Below are positions 3,030-45,926 of a stretch of DNA of 64,000 bases, in pieces. The position numbers and the translations under genes are program-made. The stretch covers positions 211,322 to 275,321 of the forward strand of contig DAHWUG010000001.1 in NCBI GenBank assembly GCA_027334715.1, in the 5' to 3' direction. The DNA comes from Nanobdellota archaeon. GTDB taxonomy: Archaea; Nanobdellota; Nanobdellia; Pacearchaeales; GW2011-AR1. The first letter of the stretch is position 1; every line of letters starts with the position of its first letter. The notes below the pieces were generated by a model, which saw only the letters and a list, made by a program, of their open reading frames with translations, did no database searches and was not told where the DNA came from.

Positions 3030-3281
3030 ATGAACAAAAACAGTAAAAAAACTAATATTTTAATTAGAAAAAAGCTTATTGGCGAAATAAGAAAATCGGG
3101 CATAAAAAGAATTAACCCCCAATCTATTTTTTTCTTGGATTCGTATATATTAAAAAAATTAAATGGAATTTTTAAAATCGCGAAGGATGAGCTTATAATC
3201 CAGGGAAAAGAGACACTAAATCCAAAGGATATAAAGAGAGTTTTAGATGCAGCTAAAAAAGAAGATTCTTTTGAAGTATGA
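3030..3281 (+). CDS. histone-fold (archaeal histone-like) small protein
   Basis: IRKSGIKRINPQS...GKETLNPKDIKRVLD parallels archaeal histone RI.K.AGAERVS...GRKTI..EDI. Confidence 0.4.
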   Translation: MNKNSKKTNILIRKKLIGEIRKSGIKRINPQSIFFLDSYILKKLNGIFKIAKDELIIQGKETLNPKDIKRVLDAAKKEDSFEV

Positions 3282-3348
3282 CTGGAGAAACTGGGAAAAT
3301 ACCCTTGCCTCACAGAATGAGACAAAGATGCCTTTGATTGAGAAGAAG
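3277..3348. repeat. cassette-boundary repeat copy R2
   Basis: begins at the stop codon of the upstream ORF (gtaTGActggagaaactggg...gagaagaag). Confidence 0.8.
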
Positions 3349-3412
3349 TGAGAAGAAAATATTTGTATATTCAATGGGAAAATATATAAACTACAGTTTA
3401 CATATGTAAACT

Positions 3413-4420: not shown

Positions 4421-4500
4421 GCAGACAGGTATGACCGGAGAAACTGGGGGAATACCCTTGCCTCACAGAATGAAACAAAAATGACACTTGTAGAAAAAAC
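4421..4500. repeat. cassette-boundary repeat copy R3
   Basis: gcagacaggtatgaccggagaaactggggg...cacagaatgaaacaaaaatgacacttgtagaaaaaac. Confidence 0.8.
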
Positions 4501-4513
4501 TTAAAAGAATAAA

Positions 4514-13175: not shown

Positions 13176-13630
13176 TGGACAATTTTGAGCGCTTATACAA
13201 AAAAGATGAAGAAAATATCAAAAAATGGGAAAAAGATTACACAGATAAAGAGTTCTACTTAAAAAATAAAGAAATAAGAAAACAACTTGAAATTTTGATA
13301 AAAAAGAAAGATAAATTAAGTTCAAGGCAGAAATTTATATGCGCAATTATTTATCATCATGGTTTTAGTCTATTATCATCTAGAAAAGCAATGAAATATA
13401 TAAAAGAAGCCCAGGCAGAAGGATACAAAAGGCAAAAATGGCTCATTGCTTCAATAACAGATAGATTATTACAAATGCAGGATAAACCCCAGAAATATGG
13501 AACTCAAATTGTTAAACTAAAAAATGGAAAATACAAACAATACAAGATTGATAATTCTATTAATGATAAAGAGAGAATTAGTATTGGATTACCAAAATTA
13601 AAAAACCTAAAAAGATATCTTGAAAAATAA
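13175..13630 (+). CDS. hypothetical protein
   Basis: ORF only, Lys-rich. Confidence 0.2.
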   Translation: MDNFERLYKKDEENIKKWEKDYTDKEFYLKNKEIRKQLEILIKKKDKLSSRQKFICAIIYHHGFSLLSSRKAMKYIKEAQAEGYKRQKWLIASITDRLLQMQDKPQKYGTQIVKLKNGKYKQYKIDNSINDKERISIGLPKLKNLKRYLEK

Positions 13631-15054: not shown

Positions 15055-15382
15055 AAAAAAGAGGCTTTCTTTTAATGCAAGGAAATGCGGAATGTTTGGC
15101 CAATTTTGGGGTCTGATGTTTTCCCGTAGGGAAAAAGCTGAAAATCTCCTTTTTGAATTTAGGAAGCCGGTAAGTTTCAGCATTCACTCTGTGTTTGTTT
15201 TCTTCCCTTTTGTTGCTGTCTGGCTTGATGAAAAAGGCAATGTTACCAAAATAAAGATTATAAAACCATTTACTCTGTCTGTCAAACCAAAAAGAAAATA
15301 CAAAAAGCTGCTGGAAATACCAATAAACAGGAAGAACAGGAAAAAATTGCAGTCTCTTTCCCGTAACTTTCCTCAATATTAA
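15026..15382 (+). CDS. DUF192-family protein
   Basis: GFHYKKK...GLMFSRREK...VWLDEKGNVTKI pattern. Confidence 0.4.
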   Translation: MQAKVGFHYKKKRLSFNARKCGMFGQFWGLMFSRREKAENLLFEFRKPVSFSIHSVFVFFPFVAVWLDEKGNVTKIKIIKPFTLSVKPKRKYKKLLEIPINRKNRKKLQSLSRNFPQY

Positions 15383-15463
15383 CTAACAAACTTCTTTCGT
15401 AAAGTTCCTCTGCTCGTAACTTTCCTCAATATTAACTAACAAACTTCTTTCGTAAAGTTCCTC
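15361..15463. repeat. tandem direct repeat, 2 x ~50 nt (ccgtaactttcctcaatattaactaacaaacttctttcgtaaagttcctc)
   Basis: two near-identical units separated by tgct; unit 1 includes the stop codon of the upstream ORF. Confidence 0.75.
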
Positions 15464-25669: not shown

Positions 25670-26872
25670 TTAACCAGAAACATTATATTCACATTCTTGG
25701 CTGCTTGAATTCCAGTAATCATATCCTTTAGTCTGACAACATGCATCATTTTGCCCAGGCGTTACTGTTGCGCAGCTTGAACCAAGCAATTGCCCATTAT
25801 TTGTTGCCTGTATATTGCTTGCCAAAAATCCCCACCATGGCGCATTTTCATTTGATACATTGCCTGTTTGCGCATCAACATGCCATGAAACATGCTCCTG
25901 AACTTTGAACAATCCAAGGAATCTTGCCTGCTTCTCTGCCTGAACTTTGTATTGTCCTGAAGAATCAAGAGTTATGTTGGTATTATTCAATGAAGCATTT
26001 GTTCTTTGCAAAATTAATTTCTGTACATCATCAGGGAAATAACTAATTAAGGTTGTTGTGTTGTTTCCAAGAATAGCATAAACGCTTCCATTGCTTTTGT
26101 ATAGCTGAACCTGTGTTGAGGCATTAACTCCCCTTACCTGAAGAATTACATTGCCTGAATTTCCAGCAATGACAGCCATTGCCTTCTGCACTACAAACCT
26201 GCTCTTTATTTCTATCTGGATATGCGCATTGCTTCCTGCTGCTTCAATATCTGAAACTGTTTCATTTACAAAAGTGTTAAGCAAGGTTCTCTGGTTATTT
26301 GTTATTCCGCCTTCAATTTCAACTTCAGGGGTATGACCATTTTCTACATTGATGTTTATCTGCACTTCATTTGTTCCGTTCTGCAAATTTGATTTTAAAT
26401 CATCTAAAGTTTGCTGTGTTGCTGCAGAGAGGTTTACATTTTCTGAAGAAACCTGAACAGCTACCTGCATCTGTCCGCCAACATTGCATTTTATCACATC
26501 TCCTGTTTCCTTGCATCCATCAGGTGCATTGCCAACAGAAAGCCTGTTTTGTGCCTGCAATGCTTCTTGTATGTCTCCCGCATCCTGCCCTTCACGCACC
26601 CTTATACTTGTATTTACACCATTATTTTCAACTTCAACCTGATGTTCTCTGCTATCTTGCTGTTCTGAATTTACTGTTGCATTTGCATTTCCAGAATCAG
26701 TACCAATTTCCGCATTTATTGTTGCGTTTGCATTTCCAGAATCAGTGCCAACTCCTGCATTTGCACTGACACCCGGACCATTTCCACCATCATCCGCATT
26801 TGTAACAAAAGAATGAACTAAAATTCCAAATAAAATAACAAAAATAAATACTGAAATCAGCCCTTTTTTCAT
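25670..26872 (-). CDS. secreted repetitive surface protein, Cys-rich at the C-terminus
   Basis: signal peptide; GTDSGNANAT repeats; shadow ORFs on the opposite strand. Confidence 0.4.
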   Translation of the reverse strand: MKKGLISVFIFVILFGILVHSFVTNADDGGNGPGVSANAGVGTDSGNANATINAEIGTDSGNANATVNSEQQDSREHQVEVENNGVNTSIRVREGQDAGDIQEALQAQNRLSVGNAPDGCKETGDVIKCNVGGQMQVAVQVSSENVNLSAATQQTLDDLKSNLQNGTNEVQININVENGHTPEVEIEGGITNNQRTLLNTFVNETVSDIEAAGSNAHIQIEIKSRFVVQKAMAVIAGNSGNVILQVRGVNASTQVQLYKSNGSVYAILGNNTTTLISYFPDDVQKLILQRTNASLNNTNITLDSSGQYKVQAEKQARFLGLFKVQEHVSWHVDAQTGNVSNENAPWWGFLASNIQATNNGQLLGSSCATVTPGQNDACCQTKGYDYWNSSSQECEYNVSG

Positions 26873-30156: not shown

Positions 30157-31211
30157 ATGGGTCGGGAGATTTTATGGAGTCCGTCCAGGATTGATGCTGC
30201 AAACTACTGCCGTATGAGGTATTATCTAAAATATATAGAGCACAATCAAGGCCTTCAACTGTCTGCATTTCTTAAAGGTGGTCTCTTGCATGAATTGATA
30301 GAAAATTTTTGGAATAGGCTTAATGTCAAATATTCAGATGCCGGGGAATTTGCAAAGTATGCACAAGGGAAATGGCAGCAGCAGTGCATAAGGTCAGAGC
30401 ATTCAGACAGGCCTGTTGTATGGAAATATCCCGAGGAAAGATGGGTTATAAAAAAAGATCTTGAGGGCATATGTGAAACACTATTCCCTATTTTTATGGA
30501 AGAGGGAAAGCCGATATATTCAGAACTTGGATTTACCATAAGAATCGGGGAAAAACATTTACAGGCAGAATAGACGATATAAGAAGAAGACTAGTTGAAG
30601 GAATCAAAAAAATTATAATAAGGGATTACAAATCAGGAAGACCCTCCATAGGCGAGATGAAACTGAATTTTGACCCGCAGCCAACAATTTACAACGCGGC
30701 ATTAAATGGGATGATGTCTGAGAGTGATGAAGTTGCAAGAGCCCTTGGTTTTGATGGAAGGGTAATAAATGCAGATGGTTCATTCATAAACCATGATTTT
30801 GTACAGGAATATTTCATGCTTGAAGCTGAAAATTTTGTCAGGAAAAAGGAAAGTGAAGGCAAGAAAGTGGTAATGCCTTATCTTAGGGAAGCAAGAAGGA
30901 CAGATGAACATTTTTACGAAGTAATCAGAATGATAGAAGGAACAGAAAAAGCTGTTGCTACAGGCAATATTTATGCTGAAAGAGGGAGAAAATGCGATGA
31001 CTGCGACATGAAAAATGCGTGCGCTGCAAAACTTATGAAATCATGGGAAGGACCGTTTTCTGTCAAGGGTCAAATGACTTTTGATTTTGCAATTCCCAGA
31101 TTCGCAAAAACAGAAACAAAATCGCAAAAAGAAAAAACACAGAAAAAAATAATATTCAGAAAGAAAAAGCCAGAAATTGTTGCCCCCAATCCGCTTTTTC
31201 CTTCCTCTTGA
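30157..31211 (+). pseudogene. Cas4/RecB-like PD-(D/E)xK nuclease with a C-terminal Cys cluster, split by a -1 frameshift at the G4A5 run (30547-30555)
   Basis: frame 1 ends ...GEKHLQAE*; the overlapping frame continues FTGRIDDIRRRLVEGIKKIIIRDYKSGRP (motif II/III) then ...CDDCDMKNACAAKL. Confidence 0.6.
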
Positions 31212-31248
31212 TTTTTCTTAACCTTGATTAATGAGAATTATTGGTAAT

Positions 31249-33000
31249 CTACATCCCCCAATCCGCTTTTTCCTTCCTCTTGATTTCCGCGATTTCCTGG
31301 AGGATATTTATCTCTTTTCCCGACAAAAGGTCCTTATTTTTCCTGAAATTTCTGAATTCTGATTCTCCCATGTCTGAATAAATAAAATCTACATCCCTCA
31401 TTCTTCTCTCGAAATTTATTCCAGGAACAGAGACTGCAAGCTCCTCGTCCTCATGAGCTTCTTCAACGCTTCTCTTTTCTTCCTGCATGTTCTTTATCTT
31501 TCCAATTTTCTTGCCTGTTGAATCCATGAAATGAATTCCAGGCACAAGCTTGCCTGCTTCAACCTTTACCCCAAAAATTGCAGGGCTTGTATTCCTGAAA
31601 ACATATTGCTTTAAAACTCTGAGCTTGCACAATTGAGTAAGCCCTAGAAGCCTTGTTTTTTCTATTTCTTTTCTTTTTTCATCCCTGAATTTTACTAAAT
31701 TTTCTATAAGCTTGTAAATAACCTCATCTGTAAGAACCTTGACATTTCCCTGCATTTGCCTTGCTTCATCATCCATTGAAACATTAAAGCCAAGAATTAC
31801 TGCATCAACCTCATTAATTTCCAGATTTGCCTTTGCGTTTAAAATATCACTCTTGCTTATTTTTCCTATACCTGCCTTAAGCACCGGAATATTTGCCTGT
31901 TCCAAAAGAATCATCAATGCTTCTAGGCTTCCAAGGGAATCTGCCTTGACAATTATACCGCTTGAATCTGTTTTTATGTTTTCAGACAATTCTTTCTGGA
32001 ACATTTTTTGAATCTCATTAAGATTGTCCTTGAAGACGACAAACGGCATTCCCGGAAGAATGTCAATGCTTTCTGTTAGCTGCATTCGCAAGCCGGTCGC
32101 AGCTGTGACTTTTTCCTTTGGAGAAAACTTGTCGCTTATAGGAAGAATCTCCTCCAAAACACGGATTTTCACAACAACAGGTTTTGCTTCCAGATTTGCA
32201 ACAGCAATCTTGTCCTTTTTTGAAAGCTCCCCATCGTAAAGTATTGATTCCAGATAATAATTCTCTTTTTCTTTCTTTATTTCCAGGACAACCCCTTTTG
32301 CCTCGCTGCCAAGAGTAATCCTGTTTTCAAGATATTTCTGGCTTAAGCCGCACAGCATAAGTGTTAGTTCTGGAATTCCCTCGCCTGTTCTTGCAGAGCA
32401 AGGAACAAGAGCTATTTTTTTTGTGAAATCAGTTATATTATAGTAAATGTCTGCATCAAAGCCATAGCTGTTCAATGAGCCAATCAAAGTTAGATATTTT
32501 TCGTTGAAGTCCATTGCGGTATTTTTTGCCTGGGACTCAATGCTTTCCCTTAAATTCTCATTATTCCTCTTCCATCCATGAATATTGTCTATTTTATTCA
32601 GTGCGATTACGAAAGGAGTTTTGTTATGCTTCAAAATCTGTATTACCTCTGATGTCTGTGGCTTTATCCCCTCATTTATATCAATGACAAGGACAGCGAG
32701 GTCTGCTAGAGAACCTCCGCGCTTTCTCAAATTAGTGAAAGCTGCATGGCCAGGCGTGTCAATAAGAAGAAATCCCGGAATGTCAAGCTTAATTCCGCTC
32801 TTATCAATCAAAGGGCATGCTTTTTTCAGATTTTCAGCAGGATATAATGTGAAAGAAATCTTTTGCGTTATCCCCCCTGCTTCGCCTGTTGCAACACTGC
32901 TTTTTCTCAGCCTGTCCAGTATGCTTGTCTTACCATGATCAACATGACCGCAGACCGTGACAATCGGCTGACGGATACGGTTATTGGCTATGGTTCTCAT
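31249..33000 (-). CDS. infB: translation initiation factor aIF5B (IF2)
   Basis: QPIVTVCGHVDHGKTSILDRLRKSSVATGEAGGITQ; probable start at the internal Met (MRTIANN). Confidence 0.85.
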   Translation of the reverse strand: MRTIANNRIRQPIVTVCGHVDHGKTSILDRLRKSSVATGEAGGITQKISFTLYPAENLKKACPLIDKSGIKLDIPGFLLIDTPGHAAFTNLRKRGGSLADLAVLVIDINEGIKPQTSEVIQILKHNKTPFVIALNKIDNIHGWKRNNENLRESIESQAKNTAMDFNEKYLTLIGSLNSYGFDADIYYNITDFTKKIALVPCSARTGEGIPELTLMLCGLSQKYLENRITLGSEAKGVVLEIKKEKENYYLESILYDGELSKKDKIAVANLEAKPVVVKIRVLEEILPISDKFSPKEKVTAATGLRMQLTESIDILPGMPFVVFKDNLNEIQKMFQKELSENIKTDSSGIIVKADSLGSLEALMILLEQANIPVLKAGIGKISKSDILNAKANLEINEVDAVILGFNVSMDDEARQMQGNVKVLTDEVIYKLIENLVKFRDEKRKEIEKTRLLGLTQLCKLRVLKQYVFRNTSPAIFGVKVEAGKLVPGIHFMDSTGKKIGKIKNMQEEKRSVEEAHEDEELAVSVPGINFERRMRDVDFIYSDMGESEFRNFRKNKDLLSGKEINILQEIAEIKRKEKADWGM

Positions 33001-34685: not shown

Positions 34686-35054
34686 ATGGGAAAATCACTA
34701 TCTCCTAAAAAATTTGAATTTGTTTCTGTAGCAGAAGCAGACAGAGAAAATCTTTTACCTCCTGTTTTAATAGAACCTGAGCTTGAAAAAATAGCCCTCA
34801 GAGAAGATGTAGAAAAAGTTTTGTCTCAGCTCAGCTCAAAAGAGTCTGCAATCGTTGTAAGATATTATGGCTTAAGGGGTTATAACCCTATAATATTAAA
34901 GGAAATTGCTAAGGAATTGCACACGTCTGTTTTTAGGGTGCAATATTTTTATCATAAAGCAATGGAAAGACTGAGGGGAAGACATGATTACTATTCAAAT
35001 AGAACAGGACTTGCAGAAAGATTAGAGCCTTATTTAGAAATTTTTTTTCAATAA
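34686..35054 (+). CDS. sigma-70 region 4-like HTH protein
   Basis: LSSKESAIVVRYYGLRGYNPIILKEIAKELHTSVFRVQYFYHKAMERLR. Confidence 0.45.
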   Translation: MGKSLSPKKFEFVSVAEADRENLLPPVLIEPELEKIALREDVEKVLSQLSSKESAIVVRYYGLRGYNPIILKEIAKELHTSVFRVQYFYHKAMERLRGRHDYYSNRTGLAERLEPYLEIFFQ

Positions 35055-35061
35055 ATGAGAA

Positions 35062-35364
35062 TTAGTAATCCTGTATTTCTTCTTCGCTAGGCTCATCTGA
35101 CAAGGTTTTCTGCCCTGCAGGCATTTTGCCTTCTTCTTTTGCAGGCTCTGCCTTTAGGTCTTCCTCAGAAATGGAATCTATCATTTCCTTGAACTTTGGG
35201 AAATCTGCAGCGCCAATCTTAACTCCTGATTTTGTGAAGCCGGTGTATCTTTCAGATGTTACAAATTCCCTTATTGTCACTCCAGGACGGCCTCCAAAGT
35301 CATCGAGCCTTATGATTATGTCTGTCGTGTCGTTCTTTTTTATCTTTCCCAGGTCTTTTTCCAT
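35062..35364 (-). CDS. PC4-like transcriptional coactivator / ssDNA-binding protein
   Basis: IIIRLDDFGGRPGVTIREFVTSERYTGFTKSGVKI parallels the PC4 core. Confidence 0.45.
   Translation of the reverse strand: MEKDLGKIKKNDTTDIIIRLDDFGGRPGVTIREFVTSERYTGFTKSGVKIGAADFPKFKEMIDSISEEDLKAEPAKEEGKMPAGQKTLSDEPSEEEIQDY
35238..35280. repeat. 43-bp direct repeat, copy 1 (inside the PC4-like CDS)
   Basis: agccggtgtatctttcagatgttacaaattcccttattgtcac, identical to 36469-36511. Confidence 0.9.
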
Positions 35365-35469: not shown

Positions 35470-36345
35470 CTATAAACCAATTTTCATTAAAATTACACCA
35501 ACTATCATAATAACACTACCTATTATTGTTTCAGTCTTAGGTTTATCTTTGAAGAAAATAAAACTAAATAACAAAACAAATAATATTTGAGTTTTGAAAA
35601 TTGTTGAAACAACTCCAATGCTTCCGCCGCCTGTAGCAGAAAAGGCTAAAATTGTTGAAATAGCATTAAGAACCCCTAAAATAATAAATAGTTTTTTGTT
35701 ATCAAATATTTGTTTTGTAAAGTTTTCGTTTCTTAGATAGAGAATTGGCAATAGTCCGATTATAATCAGAATATTCTCAGCCAGAAGAACAAAAGTAGTA
35801 TTCTGAGGAATAGTGTTATTGATTGCGAGCTTGTCAAATGCTATTACGACGCTGCCAGCTAAAACAGATAATATCATTAGTTTTGACGCTTTATTTTTAA
35901 AAAGCAGTTTTATAGGTTTAAGTAAACCTTCTTTAGCACTACTAACATTTAAAGTATACACTCCAAACAATGTTATAAAAATACCAATTATTGCGAGAAA
36001 CCCTGGCTTCTCATTGAGGGGCGGAAGAAAAGCAACCAATAATGTAAATATTGAACCGAGAGATATAAGTGGATAAATTGCTGATAAATCGGCAATTTTC
36101 ATTGCTTTGAACTGAACAATCTGTGAAACAGTGTAAAAGAGAACGGAACCAACAATTCCAGTAATAAATAATAGGTTTAAACTCGGAATGCCTTCTTTGA
36201 TAGCAATCACTACAATAATTGGCGTTGCTAAAACTAATGTGCACCAGGTTAAAACTAAGGGGCTAACACCCTTTAGTATTCTTTTGTTTAAGATTACAGA
36301 AATAGCAAATATTACAGCTGTTATAATTGCTATATAAAACCACAT
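35470..36345 (-). CDS. EamA/DMT-family transporter
   Basis: ~10 TM helices in two repeated halves. Confidence 0.55.
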   Translation of the reverse strand: MWFYIAIITAVIFAISVILNKRILKGVSPLVLTWCTLVLATPIIVVIAIKEGIPSLNLLFITGIVGSVLFYTVSQIVQFKAMKIADLSAIYPLISLGSIFTLLVAFLPPLNEKPGFLAIIGIFITLFGVYTLNVSSAKEGLLKPIKLLFKNKASKLMILSVLAGSVVIAFDKLAINNTIPQNTTFVLLAENILIIIGLLPILYLRNENFTKQIFDNKKLFIILGVLNAISTILAFSATGGGSIGVVSTIFKTQILFVLLFSFIFFKDKPKTETIIGSVIMIVGVILMKIGL

Positions 36346-36468
36346 ATTTATTTAAAATCATTGAATGTATATAAATATATTTTCCTCTCTTATTTCTTGT
36401 AAAGTTGAATGTTGTACAGACTAACTCGAATATTGTGCAGAATTCTCAAGATTATTTATATTGTGCAA

Positions 36469-36511
36469 AGCCGGTGTATCTTTCAGATGTTACAAATTCC
36501 CTTATTGTCAC
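36469..36511. repeat. 43-bp direct repeat, copy 2
   Basis: exact copy of 35238-35280. Confidence 0.9.
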
Positions 36512-36736
36512 GCCCGAAGATGAAGAATTTATAAATAAATTTCCTGTGGATAATTAATGAATAACACAATTAAACTGCTTTATTCATTGCTCATTGGATT
36601 TGTTGCAGTAGTGATAGCGAAATTTGTCCATCCAGTCTGGAGTTTAATTCACCTGCTTATATTTGGCTTAGTAGTATTCGCTGTAACATTCATATTGACT
36701 TTATTAATAAAAAGGAAAAGAGCGAAAAAATAAGCT

Positions 36737-37057
36737 TTATCTTCTCTTGTTCTGGTTGCTTATGTGAAATACATGTTCAATCTGATGCTCTATCTTGCTG
36801 AAAACCTTGTGAAAGACGGCGTTTAGCTCAAAATCGCTTGCTTCTGCCTCCATTGTCTTTCCTGCATAACTTACCTGAGCATGAAGGCTATATTTTGTCC
36901 TTCCTCCCTTGCTGTGCTCTTTTAGTTTTATCCTGAAAGACTCAGCATCTTTTAGCATTCTGTCTATTTTTTTGGAATTTTCCTCAAATATTTTTTGAAA
37001 CTCGCTTTTAGTACTGTCTGTAAGAATTTCAAATCCTACTGTCTGGAGTTCAACCAT
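36737..37057 (-). CDS. ribosome hibernation factor (HPF/RaiA)-like protein
   Basis: size and pattern (MVELQTVGFEI...; C-terminal FELNAVFHKVFSKIEHQI resembling Y.AID.A.DKLERQL). Confidence 0.35.
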   Translation of the reverse strand: MVELQTVGFEILTDSTKSEFQKIFEENSKKIDRMLKDAESFRIKLKEHSKGGRTKYSLHAQVSYAGKTMEAEASDFELNAVFHKVFSKIEHQIEHVFHISNQNKRR

Positions 37058-37101
37058 CTTTTATTGCATGACAAAATAGCAAGATTATATAAATTTTATG
37101 A

Positions 37102-37142
37102 AAACGAAATCGCCACAACCAAAACCCTATAAAAAGTAATAC
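37102..37142. repeat. 41-bp direct repeat, copy 1
   Basis: aaacgaaatcgccacaaccaaaaccctataaaaagtaatac; one mismatch to 37937-37977. Confidence 0.85.
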
Positions 37143-37160
37143 TGTTAAGAATTTAAAATC

Positions 37161-37877
37161 CTAAGAATCATCGATTAACCCCTTAAAAATTCTCATCATA
37201 TCTCTGACTTTTATTGAATTGATTTTTCTTTCTGTGTTTCCATCTTTAAAATAACTACCAATTATTGCCGCATTACAAATTTTCATCTGATTAACAAAAT
37301 TTCTGGGATTTACGCCTGCTCCAACAACCAATGGAAAATTTCCCATAACTCTCCTAAAATCCATTAATTTTTTTGTTGGTGTCTCAATTCCAGTTCCTTC
37401 TCCTGTTGTTACGATTGCTTCACATCTTGACATTCCTTCCGCTATATCTTCTTCTAAAGCCCTTCCTGTTGGCTTAATATATTTAAATCTTACTCCCCCG
37501 AGAATAAAAATATTTTGGTATGCTATCCTATAATTATTAAAATAATCTGGAGTAATATCAGGGGAGTTAATAGTATCAAATTGCACAAACTTTGCTTCGT
37601 ACTTGTTAGCAAGAGTAAGTCCAAGATAAGGATCTCTCAGAACATTAACTCCCAATACTAAATTAGTCCCCCTCTCTTTAATTGCTTCTAAAGTTCTCTC
37701 AACGTCTTCTTCACTTCCATGATAATCTTCAACAATTACTCCGTGAATACCTTGTTGTTCAAAAATGTCAATTTCATCCAACGCTCTTTTAACTCTTTCT
37801 TTCTTATTTTCTCCTGCTAGATGGAGCATTCCAATAACTGATTTCTTAGGAAACAATTGAAAAAAATCCAATGTCAT
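37161..37877 (-). CDS. BtpA/SgcQ-family TIM-barrel protein
   Basis: SVIGMLHLAGENKKE...GIHGVIVEDYHGS. Confidence 0.55.
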   Translation of the reverse strand: MTLDFFQLFPKKSVIGMLHLAGENKKERVKRALDEIDIFEQQGIHGVIVEDYHGSEEDVERTLEAIKERGTNLVLGVNVLRDPYLGLTLANKYEAKFVQFDTINSPDITPDYFNNYRIAYQNIFILGGVRFKYIKPTGRALEEDIAEGMSRCEAIVTTGEGTGIETPTKKLMDFRRVMGNFPLVVGAGVNPRNFVNQMKICNAAIIGSYFKDGNTERKINSIKVRDMMRIFKGLIDDS

Positions 37878-37936
37878 TAAAAAATATATAACTTATTCTT
37901 TTTAAGAATTATTGTTCTTTTCGTTTAACCTTTTTT

Positions 37937-37977
37937 AAACGAAATCGCCACAACTAAAACCCTATAAAAAGTAATAC
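37937..37977. repeat. 41-bp direct repeat, copy 2, immediately 3' of tRNA-Ser
   Basis: aaacgaaatcgccacaactaaaaccctataaaaagtaatac. Confidence 0.85.
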
Positions 37978-37978
37978 A

Positions 37979-38059
37979 CGCCCGTGCCAGGAATTGAACC
38001 TGGAAGCCAGTTAAGGCCTCGCTTTCCAAGCGAGTGGAGTACCATTGTCCCACACGGGC
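37979..38059 (-). tRNA. tRNA-Ser (anticodon GGA) with a long variable arm
   Basis: acceptor GCCCGTG/CACGGGC, anticodon stem CTCGC/GCGAG with loop TTGGAAA, T-arm CCAGGTTCAATTCCTGG, 14-nt variable arm. Confidence 0.8.
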
Positions 38060-38062
38060 TTA

Positions 38063-38750
38063 TTGTAAAATCTTCTTTAACTTAACATTTTTATCTGGAT
38101 GATTAAAGCTTATAAGACTTTTGTATTTTTCTAGATTACCATCTTTTTTTGATATGACCAAGACATTGTAATCACTATGCCAAGAACCTTTTTGTTTATA
38201 TGGACCATAAACCTTTGAAAAAATTCCTATTTTTTTTCAATTCATTTATTATAGAAATTAATCCAATTCTATTTATTGACTTAACCTGAATATTCTTTTC
38301 ATATTTAATAGCATAAGCTTCGCAGTCAAAGAAACATTTTATCCATTCTTTTACTAGTTCTAAGTTTAGGCCATTCGGAATATTCCAATTTAAGCTGTCA
38401 TATCTTCCTAAATTTAATAGACCTAAGCACGCAGGTTTGTTCTTAATGCTAATCTCATAATAACCTCCTCTTTGTTTTATTGCAGGTTTTATGTTATACT
38501 CTTTTATAAATAAAGAGGCAACATCTTTTGATAAAGCAAAACTATCCAAAGCGATTTTTATTTCATAATGAACAGCATGCTTTTTCTTGCTTTCTTTTCT
38601 TATTTTTATCCAACCATCTCCGCAAAGATAAGCATTTATTGAGAATTTCTCCTTGCTAAGATTTTTAGATATTCTAATTTTAGAATGCTGTTTTTTCCAA
38701 CGGGCTTCTAATCCTAATTGACTAAATTTGAGAAATATACAAACCTAATC
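38063..38750 (-). pseudogene. degenerate LAGLIDADG homing-endonuclease gene with no start codon for the N-terminal motif and a frameshift at the T8/A8 run (38230-38237)
   Basis: in-frame upstream of the track ORF: ...NAYLCGDGW... and a second motif WIKCFFDCEAY; the open frame begins right after the Tmk-like stop. Confidence 0.5.
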
Positions 38751-45386: not shown

Positions 45387-45926
45387 ATGATGCTTGTAAA
45401 AACTTCTGCAATAACTGATGAAACAAGGGAGCACATGAATACTGTTCTTGAGGAAGTATTTGCGCATAAAGAAGGGGAGGGTATACAATCAGTTGTTTCT
45501 GAAGTACTTAATGACAAAGATGTTTTCTTATACTTACTAACTTATCTTAAAACAAATCAAGTTGTTTCTGAAGTACTTAATGACAAAGATGTTTTCTTAT
45601 ACTTACTAACTTATCTTAAAACAAATCAAGGAGTTGAGTTAGGAAGAATGTCTTATTGGGATGATATTAGGGTGGAAGTTCCTTACGGGATAGCAGTTGA
45701 TCAAAGGTCTTATCATCCTAAACTGACTATATTTGAGTATAGTTCTGTAATGGGAAGTGCTGACGAATTAGGATTTTATCCATTTTTACCAAGACGCCAT
45801 GGAACTTTTGCTTATGAAGATTTTCCTACTCCAAAGAATTTTTCTGATGCAGTAAATTTGGTTTTAAAAAATCCAAAAGGAAGTTTAGTTGATTTAAACA
45901 GAATAAAAAAAGGAATTACTTACTAA
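45387..45926 (+). CDS. hypothetical protein with an internal in-frame 69-nt tandem duplication
   Basis: VVSEVLNDKDVFLYLLTYLKTNQ encoded twice (45491-45559 and 45560-45628). Confidence 0.3.
   Translation: MMLVKTSAITDETREHMNTVLEEVFAHKEGEGIQSVVSEVLNDKDVFLYLLTYLKTNQVVSEVLNDKDVFLYLLTYLKTNQGVELGRMSYWDDIRVEVPYGIAVDQRSYHPKLTIFEYSSVMGSADELGFYPFLPRRHGTFAYEDFPTPKNFSDAVNLVLKNPKGSLVDLNRIKKGITY

Follow-up and report, generated by a model that had tools for sequence, protein, structure and literature searches.

A BtpA gene between 41-bp direct repeats at a tRNA-Ser(GGA) hotspot: probable att-type scars of a miniature islet in a Pacearchaeota genome

The window analysed here, a 64,000-nt stretch of DNA from a Nanobdellota archaeon of the Pacearchaeales (GenBank assembly GCA_027334715.1, contig DAHWUG010000001.1, positions 211,322 to 275,321), contains a single BtpA-family gene bracketed by two 41-bp direct repeats next to the 3′ end of a tRNA-Ser(GGA) gene. 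The organisms named for the window's homologues also indicate a DPANN archaeon of Pacearchaeota type. We consider it probable, at roughly 0.6, that these repeats are att-type junction scars of a miniature BtpA islet that carries no recombinase and sits at a tRNA-Ser(GGA) hotspot of the Pacearchaeota, and the islet appears to have been remodelled later by replacement of the tRNA itself. A preliminary description of this DNA had seen in the repeats the mark of a decayed mini-island; that reading proves essentially right, with corrections as to the tRNA allele from which the repeats derive, the replacement of the tRNA, and the supposed link to a neighbouring EamA gene.

The repeats lie at 37102-37142 (R1) and 37937-37977 (R2), as originally described; repeat finding and a DNA search of the window agree on 40/41 identical positions, a match reached in 0 of 100 shuffled sequences. 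Read on the minus strand, on which both copies are oriented, R1 consists of a 21-nt arm (GTATTACTTTTTATAGGGTTT, 37142-37122), an 11-nt core (TGGTTGTGGCG, 37121-37111) and a 9-nt trailer (ATTTCGTTT, 37110-37102). R2 has the same arm and trailer, and its core, TAGTTGTGGCG, bears one G>A change from the tRNA consensus; this is the single mismatch between the copies, a C/T difference on the plus strand. The edges are sharp, the flanks of the two copies being dissimilar outside the 41 nt. Full and partial searches found no third copy or long sub-match in the 64-kb window, and the repeat's core 22-mer had no exact match in reference genomes or JGI metagenomes, neither of which includes the source genome. 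In the window and the collections searched, the repeat is therefore not the common intergenic motif that the preliminary description had entertained as a competing possibility. Two further contigs, k141_1685274 (ENA) and SRR13170411_768446 (Logan), carry both copies at 100% identity, and a third, Logan contig SRR13170412_102100, carries R1; because assemblies from other runs reproduce the structure so exactly, an artefact of assembly can be dismissed.

Read along the minus strand, genes and sites succeed one another as S10, ThyX, thymidylate kinase, a LAGLIDADG-like open reading frame (ORF), tRNA-Ser, one T, R2, 59 nt, BtpA, 18 nt, R1, 44 nt and an HPF/RaiA-like gene, with tRNA-Ser, R2, BtpA, R1 and the HPF/RaiA-like gene all on that strand. 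The adjacency of R2 to the 3′ end of the tRNA, noted earlier, holds with one base in between, the T at 37978, as the tRNA is placed by both ARAGORN and Rfam.

Where does the repeat come from? Loci related to that of the window, to which we give L-numbers, supply the answer for about half of it. The closest relatives by HPF identity (80-83%), L005/L006/L049 and L011, have the order S10, tRNA-Ser(GGA), 50 nt, Cupin_2, 8 nt, HPF, and no BtpA. Their sequence after the tRNA reads ...TGGTTGGGGCG TTTCTTT TCATAAAATTTATATAATCTT, and R1 with its flank reads ...TGGTTGTGGCG ATTTCGTTT TCATAAAATTTATATAATCTT. R1 aligns collinearly with the tRNA-Ser region of L011 and L005 from the core through to the start codon, the promoter-side anchored alignment attaining a score that only 7 of 5000 shuffles reached, and the core TGGTTGTGGCG matches the 3′ end of this older type of tRNA-Ser at 10 of 11 positions. 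Because the collinear alignment beats the shuffles in this way, we take R1 to include, from a tRNA-Ser like that of the relatives, the 3′ end with its trailer, in unbroken connection with the original downstream promoter. The att-like character first ascribed to the repeats stands to the extent that they include 11 nt of a tRNA-Ser 3′ end plus trailer; what falls is their derivation from the adjacent tRNA, which ends in TGGCACGGGCG, since the source is the older allele of TGGTTGGGGCG type.

The unsplit form of the site is preserved in L005/L049 and L011, where an intact tRNA-Ser runs straight into the same trailer and promoter and the displaced core is absent. An empty site beside tRNA-Ser, the comparison suggested by the preliminary description, thus exists in close relatives as an unsplit site, but the slot there holds Cupin_2, which makes this a variable slot and not a simple one-off insertion. 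At L114 (HPF 78% identical), a single homologue of the whole repeat, arm included, lies at the position of R1, and this, together with the collinearity of core, trailer and promoter, identifies R1 as the older, in-context copy. The left context AAC[T/A] is common to R1, L114 and L096, whereas the left flank of R2, a tRNA, differs. From the right-flank collinearity, the L114 homologue and this left context, we favour R1 as the original in the direction of copying.

The same tRNA end has been used repeatedly. A scan of reference genomes for the tRNA-Ser 3′ end yielded 48 archaeal tRNA loci, in many of which the arrangement S10, tRNA-Ser, slot, HPF, PC4-like gene is retained; 376-2993 nt long, the slot carries unrelated, differing genes from lineage to lineage, with BtpA in none. 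At 8 of the 48 loci (L041, L051, L080, L091, L092, L096, L100 and L108) the final 11 nt of the tRNA occur again, exactly and in direct orientation, 88-1337 nt farther downstream, where about 0.02 such cases would be expected in total. The recurrence proposed from the window is seen at this tRNA in the clade. L120 has a similar displaced copy, of 7 nt of tRNA plus 4 nt of trailer, and a match at L036 was set aside as it looks like another tRNA gene. The clearest case is L096/L115, a Rifle-groundwater Pacearchaeota genome with flanks unrelated to those of the window, whose intact tRNA ends in TGGTTGGGGCG|TATGTTAT; beyond it come a single 220-aa gene and then GTAACACTTTTTATAGGGTTT|TGGTTGGGGCG|TATTTTAT. 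The bracketed genes, 0-3 per interval, are of accessory type and co-oriented with the tRNA: Fic in L091, an NYN gene with a MazE-like/ParE pair in L041, a HEPN protein in L051 and unknowns elsewhere. In L096, L041, L051, L091 and L092 one repeat copy includes the end of an intact tRNA, which is not so in the window.

A conserved arm adjoins the displaced core in the window, L114, L096 and L041, across lineages whose cargo differs, and the core follows the resident tRNA even where that tRNA is divergent (the L041 core is TGGCTCGGGCG). Over 37 nt the arm shows 70-78% identity, and the window and L096 agree at 21 consecutive nt, in genomes that are otherwise distant (aIF5B 71% identical for L041, or lower); this is too conserved for neutral vertical descent and argues that the arm is constrained or mobile. 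Homologues of the repeat were found only downstream of tRNA-Ser, and decayed relics occur in L077, L090 and on the HPF side of L051. L080, L100 and L108 carry near-empty scars, 88-95 nt after tRNA-Ser and devoid of a cargo gene, each made up of a spacer of about 45 nt, a GC-rich hairpin like an anticodon arm and an exact 20-nt copy of the T-loop-to-3′-end segment. L092 also has an inverted copy of the tRNA 3′ end (CGCCCCAAC) 18 nt past tRNA-Ser, which could pair with the 3′ strand of the acceptor.

The resident tRNA itself points to a second event. This tRNA-Ser(GGA) (37979-38059, minus strand; acceptor GCCCGTG/CACGGGC; found by ARAGORN and Rfam) is an allele of a new type, whose acceptor, D, anticodon and variable stems all depart from those of the relatives' tRNA-Ser. 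Its 5′ end abuts the TAA stop codon (38062-38060) of a LAGLIDADG homing-endonuclease gene (38060-38717, minus strand), which matches LAGLIDADG_3 at 26.3 bits against a cut-off of 22.5 once a frameshift is bridged, with both motifs conserved in the alignment. The start codon and some 17 N-terminal codons have been lost and the frame is shifted at an A8 run near 38230-38237, so this is a pseudogene; such decay is as expected after fixation of a gene of this kind. Intact relatives of 225-239 aa, up to 74% identical, sit with a tRNA-Ser at L116 (5001-5790), L119 (3307-4095) and L120 (5001-5783). In all four lineages, the window included, the LAGLIDADG stop codon lies 0-3 nt before tRNA-Ser(GGA), and what lies upstream of the pair varies (S10, Tmk or a VTT-domain gene); because the pairing recurs with varied upstream neighbours, we regard the two as a conserved two-part module. 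The tRNAs of L116 and L119 belong to the same allele family as the resident tRNA, and that of L120, missed by ARAGORN, shares its D-arm by eye and has an apparent intron.

Independent evidence that a tRNA can be replaced after a relic has formed comes from L015, where the tRNA is of the new type but the core immediately before the HPF promoter, TGGTTGGGGCG, is of the old one. A foreign xenologue as the source of the resident tRNA was considered and rejected, the same allele type standing at the syntenic site in L015 and L090. The resident tRNA is thus an alternative allele associated with the LAGLIDADG gene, and from comparison of the sequences it would have reached the window as a later replacement.

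How might the present arrangement have been assembled? The ancestral layout was tRNA-Ser, trailer, promoter and HPF, as it still is in the closest relatives. In many lineages inserted DNA now separates the tRNA from a second, displaced 3′ end, and the layout has become tRNA with its core, cargo, arm plus core, trailer and promoter. The window has this layout too, its cargo being BtpA, which would lie between attL-like and attR-like junctions made by recombination at the tRNA end. The LAGLIDADG/tRNA-Ser module may subsequently have landed directly upstream of the left copy (R2), overwriting the old tRNA, and the endonuclease gene would have decayed after the arrival of the module. Recombination across the tRNA-end sequence may have either inserted the BtpA unit or made the left copy identical to the right one; a tyrosine recombinase may have acted in trans, or the shared 20-41 nt may have served for homologous recombination.

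Along one conceivable path, BtpA would have been resident cargo between the old tRNA and its relic, and a module from a close lineage, bringing the new tRNA, the single T and a repeat, would have recombined within the roughly 20-nt core and trailer of the old tRNA and left R2 behind. The sequence to the right of R2 (AAAAAGGTTAAACGAAAAG) resembles that to the right of the intact tRNA in L080/L100 (21/3000 shuffles), which supports this path. Along another, a circular BtpA unit with one repeat would have recombined with the chromosomal repeat in Campbell fashion, through a recombinase in trans or by homologous recombination. The pair is probably a fossil by now, and a looping-out of the 835-bp unit between the repeats is still conceivable in principle.

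Several observations weigh against an islet of this origin. The resident tRNA differs from the repeat core at 3 of 11 positions, and the repeat lies outside the tRNA. The 21-nt arm taken alone shows no significant likeness to the variable-arm/T-arm region of a tRNA, so that only core and trailer, 20 of the 41 nt, are demonstrably tRNA-derived, and a derivation of the whole 41 nt from a decayed tRNA 3′ half was dropped on the same ground; the arm does resemble the sequence directly after tRNA-Ser in L091 (1/3000 shuffles) and L070 (24/3000). The identity of the arm in both copies requires an extra step, either conversion or integration at a pre-existing relic. Neither a BtpA-less nor a circular variant was seen, all 4 contigs with the same HPF protein having BtpA upstream. 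Two scans of viral contigs gave 0 matches to arm or core in a virus or plasmid, and a virus or plasmid attP was rejected on this result. Pfam scans of window ORFs of at least 170 aa returned no integrase, recombinase or transposase domain, bearing out the lack of an integrase already remarked on in the preliminary description, and no recombinase is found among the cargo of the related intervals. BtpA itself has a promoter typical of the clade and ordinary GC content, with no sign of foreign origin.

Among the alternatives, break repair with template switching, in the absence of any mobile element, strikes us as unlikely but credible. A double-strand break, for which the LAGLIDADG enzyme might be responsible, would have struck the old tRNA-Ser and been filled with sequence copied from R1 to give R2, and BtpA would be a mere neighbour. 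The position of R2 fits this, for it begins exactly 1 nt past the new tRNA, right where the LAGLIDADG-tRNA module has its junction. At the other edge of R2, spanning the boundary with the BtpA leader and present in that copy only, is a perfect 10-6-10 palindrome, TTTCGTTTAA-AAAAGG-TTAAACGAAA (37919-37944, minus strand), and inverted templated sequence is typical of such repair; the region of R2 plus leader folds at -19 kcal/mol (z -3.0, 0/200 shuffles), with no such fold around R1. Further perfect short-range duplications exist in this genome, and the EamA case discussed below likewise looks as if a short piece of a nearby gene had been copied into the junction of an insertion. What break repair leaves unexplained is the occurrence of exact displaced tRNA ends around accessory genes in 8/48 loci, with no LAGLIDADG gene in the stretch examined, as well as the retention of the arm beside different cargo; R1, moreover, predates the event, as L114 attests.

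A dedicated and hitherto undescribed cassette-capture system of the Pacearchaeota at the 3′ end of tRNA-Ser(GGA) is, in our estimate, improbable. Units of 1-3 genes with a site of arm plus tRNA core would be inserted, stacked and exchanged there, R2-BtpA-R1 would be a two-site array, and the agent would be either a host Xer-type recombinase encoded elsewhere or the repair of LAGLIDADG breaks. Distinctly doubtful, too, is the more specific proposal of active, integron-like capture, in which single-gene cassettes with an arm-plus-core site would be moved by a recombinase encoded elsewhere and R2-BtpA-R1 would be part of a live array. The small intervals (0.8-1.3 kb) with 1-3 genes co-oriented with the tRNA, the lineage-specific cargo, the conservation of the arm while the core tracks the host tRNA, the near-empty scar versions in L080, L100 and L108, and the two arm-plus-core sites in tandem in the window are all in keeping with such a system. 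They are offset by the failure to identify a recombinase, the presence of one lone cassette between the window's sites, the decay of the relics in L077, L090 and the HPF side of L051, and the lack of any observed presence/absence polymorphism or of an extrachromosomal copy in viral contigs.

We regard as very improbable a regulatory role for the repeat, in which it would combine a TATA-like box with a terminator for tRNA or mRNA and either have undergone duplication or be widespread because every gene needs such a cassette. On the coding strand the repeat does hold T5 and T4 runs and a TTTATA box, each copy stands upstream of a gene, and at L012 a terminator-like motif lies on both sides of BtpA. 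Against this, there are two copies in 64 kb and no partial matches, BtpA and HPF each have a better-placed promoter motif of their own, homologues occur only downstream of tRNA-Ser, and 40/41 identity speaks of copying, not convergence. Nor does the repeat have an intrinsic fold: the 41-mer folds insignificantly on either strand (z 0.07 and 0.33), and as Rfam finds the tRNA alone, a structured RNA was discarded as the identity of the repeat. A transposon with a target-site duplication was likewise set aside, there being no terminal inverted repeats at the unit ends and no transposase; to our knowledge, 41 bp is also far longer than any described target-site duplication. That the structure is an artefact or chimera, a worry with any metagenome assembly such as the source, is next to negligible, given that ENA and Logan assemblies of other runs show it with 100% identity.

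The cargo, BtpA (37161-37877, minus strand), encodes 238 aa, matches Pfam BtpA PF03437 with an E-value of 3.6e-18 and is the sole ORF between the repeats. Its nearest homologue, at L012, is 68% identical and lies in an unrelated gene context, and tblastn found BtpA in the tRNA-Ser slot of none of the related loci screened. A promoter-type motif, AATAATTCTTAAAA (37900-37913, minus strand), stands 23-36 nt upstream of the ATG; the window contains 3 exact occurrences and 13 with at most one mismatch, compared with 5.1 expected, several of them 30-40 nt upstream of starts, and the same motif precedes genes at L012. The idea that a leader had moved with BtpA is weakened accordingly, because the stretch shared with the nearest BtpA is mostly this general promoter consensus. 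The enriched promoter-type motif AATAATnnTTAAAA occurs at 13626, 37900 and 43563 with 10 near-matches, and also in L012 and L096; it is likely the BRE/TATA (TFIIB recognition element and TATA box) consensus of the clade. The L012 BtpA is itself flanked by a 39-nt imperfect direct repeat, 85% identical (L012:1585-1623 and 2429-2467; GGGATTTAACCC..CTGTTTT..), which looks like a hairpin plus T-run terminator after successive genes.

The right-hand anchor of the variable slot is the conserved HPF/RaiA-like gene (36737-37057, minus strand; 106 aa; PF02482, 24.1 bits). Its promoter region, TCATAAAATTTATATAATCTT (37081-37101, minus strand), is conserved and in relatives lies directly 3′ of the intact tRNA-Ser, the promoter itself being the conserved TTTATATAA. 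HPF/RaiA (S30AE), a bacterial-type protein resembling ribosome-hibernation factors, is kept beside tRNA-Ser across the Pacearchaeota. A second bacterial-type protein in this archaeal window (34686-35054, plus strand) has 122 aa and a sigma-70 region 4 domain.

The neighbouring EamA gene (35470-36345), which the preliminary description had taken for another unit of the same kind, turns out differently. The repeat upstream of it is an isolated internal fragment of a PC4-like gene: 55 nt at 36460-36514 (minus strand), which encode the best-conserved peptide of the PC4-like protein, GVTIREFVTSERYTGF, were copied from 35229-35283 within the ORF at 35062-35364. In relatives the PC4-like gene follows HPF directly, while in the window a 58-aa gene, the 55-nt fragment and EamA lie in between. 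Neither flank of the fragment shows homology, and PC4-like fragments are absent from insertions in 13 related loci. With a geometry unfit for Campbell-type integration and nothing comparable in those 13 loci, a mechanism shared with the BtpA repeat was rejected, and we see no evidence for one; the fragment looks more like filler or a remnant of recombination.

Other short-range duplications in the window, perfect or nearly so, comprise a 69-nt tandem (45491-45628), a 49-nt pair spaced 53 nt apart (15362-15463), a 32-nt pair spaced 72 nt apart near the aIF5B start (31183-31286) and a 45-nt tandem (26663-26752), which suggests that slippage or template switching is frequent in this genome. Three copies of a 79-nt repeat about 1.2 kb apart (2037-2115, 3276-3354 and 4429-4507) are probably the 3′ ends of tandem paralogous genes, with nucleotidyltransferase/MarR-type ORFs nearby.

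DPANN archaea have tiny genomes with few recognised mobile elements, and how they gain accessory genes is poorly understood. The locus described here offers one concrete route, in which the 3′ end of tRNA-Ser would serve as a repeated landing site for one-gene islets that retain no recombinase, and the pairing of a LAGLIDADG gene with a tRNA-Ser allele suggests that homing can replace tRNA alleles themselves. Displaced tRNA ends could be used as a marker for mini-islands in DPANN genomes, and they call for caution in the annotation of tRNAs.

The closest parallels are the genomic islands that target tRNA genes. In the literature, a partial tRNA gene in a displaced position counts as the attR scar of an integrated element, and arrays arise through re-use of att sites; PYG1 of Pyrococcus yayanosii, for instance, is a 21-kb island between 44-bp direct repeats of the 3′ part of tRNA-Gln (PMC9897764, PMC6563490). 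PYG1 and the SSV-type and pNOB8-type elements share with the window a direct repeat that includes a tRNA 3′ end, a displaced partial copy on the far side, an unsplit site in relatives, variable accessory cargo and re-use of the same tRNA. They differ in size and equipment, at about 9-23 kb with an integrase of their own against 0.1-1.3 kb, 0-3 genes and no recombinase here, and in that neither repeat copy in the window is part of a functional tRNA and only 20 of the repeat's 41 nt are demonstrably tRNA-derived.

Cis-mobilizable elements (CIMEs) and decayed islands of the streptococcal families of integrative and conjugative elements (ICEs) and integrative and mobilizable elements (IMEs) are att-flanked remnants without recombination genes (PMC5704250). 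Like the unit in the window, CIMEs have att-type flanks, no integrase in cis, a state that may be mobilisable in trans or fossil, and accretion in tandem; they are bacterial and a cognate ICE or IME is known for them, whereas the window belongs to a DPANN archaeon with a tiny genome and no cognate element or recombinase was identified. Integron cassettes resemble the hotspot units in that single accessory genes, all in one orientation, gather at one position, each beside a recombination-type site, with the recombinase outside the cassette. The window departs from them in lacking IntI, attI and the imperfect palindrome of an attC site (the repeat has no fold), in the promoter that BtpA has of its own and in the use of a tRNA 3′ end as the site; Pfam found neither a tyrosine recombinase nor IntI among window ORFs of at least 170 aa.

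For the LAGLIDADG-tRNA module the apt comparison is with free-standing homing endonuclease genes such as the seg and mob genes of phage T4, which spread together with flanking markers in what is called intronless homing. Like these, the LAGLIDADG gene of the window adjoins a conserved gene, tRNA-Ser, with a distinct allele of that neighbour and varied genes upstream, and in the window it has decayed; cleavage of the alternative tRNA-Ser allele is putative. We know of no described class of free-standing archaeal LAGLIDADG genes abutting the 5′ end of a tRNA. Miniature islets at tRNA ends that lack a recombinase would be, in DPANN archaea, a known kind of element in a new form, here joined to a LAGLIDADG-tRNA module.

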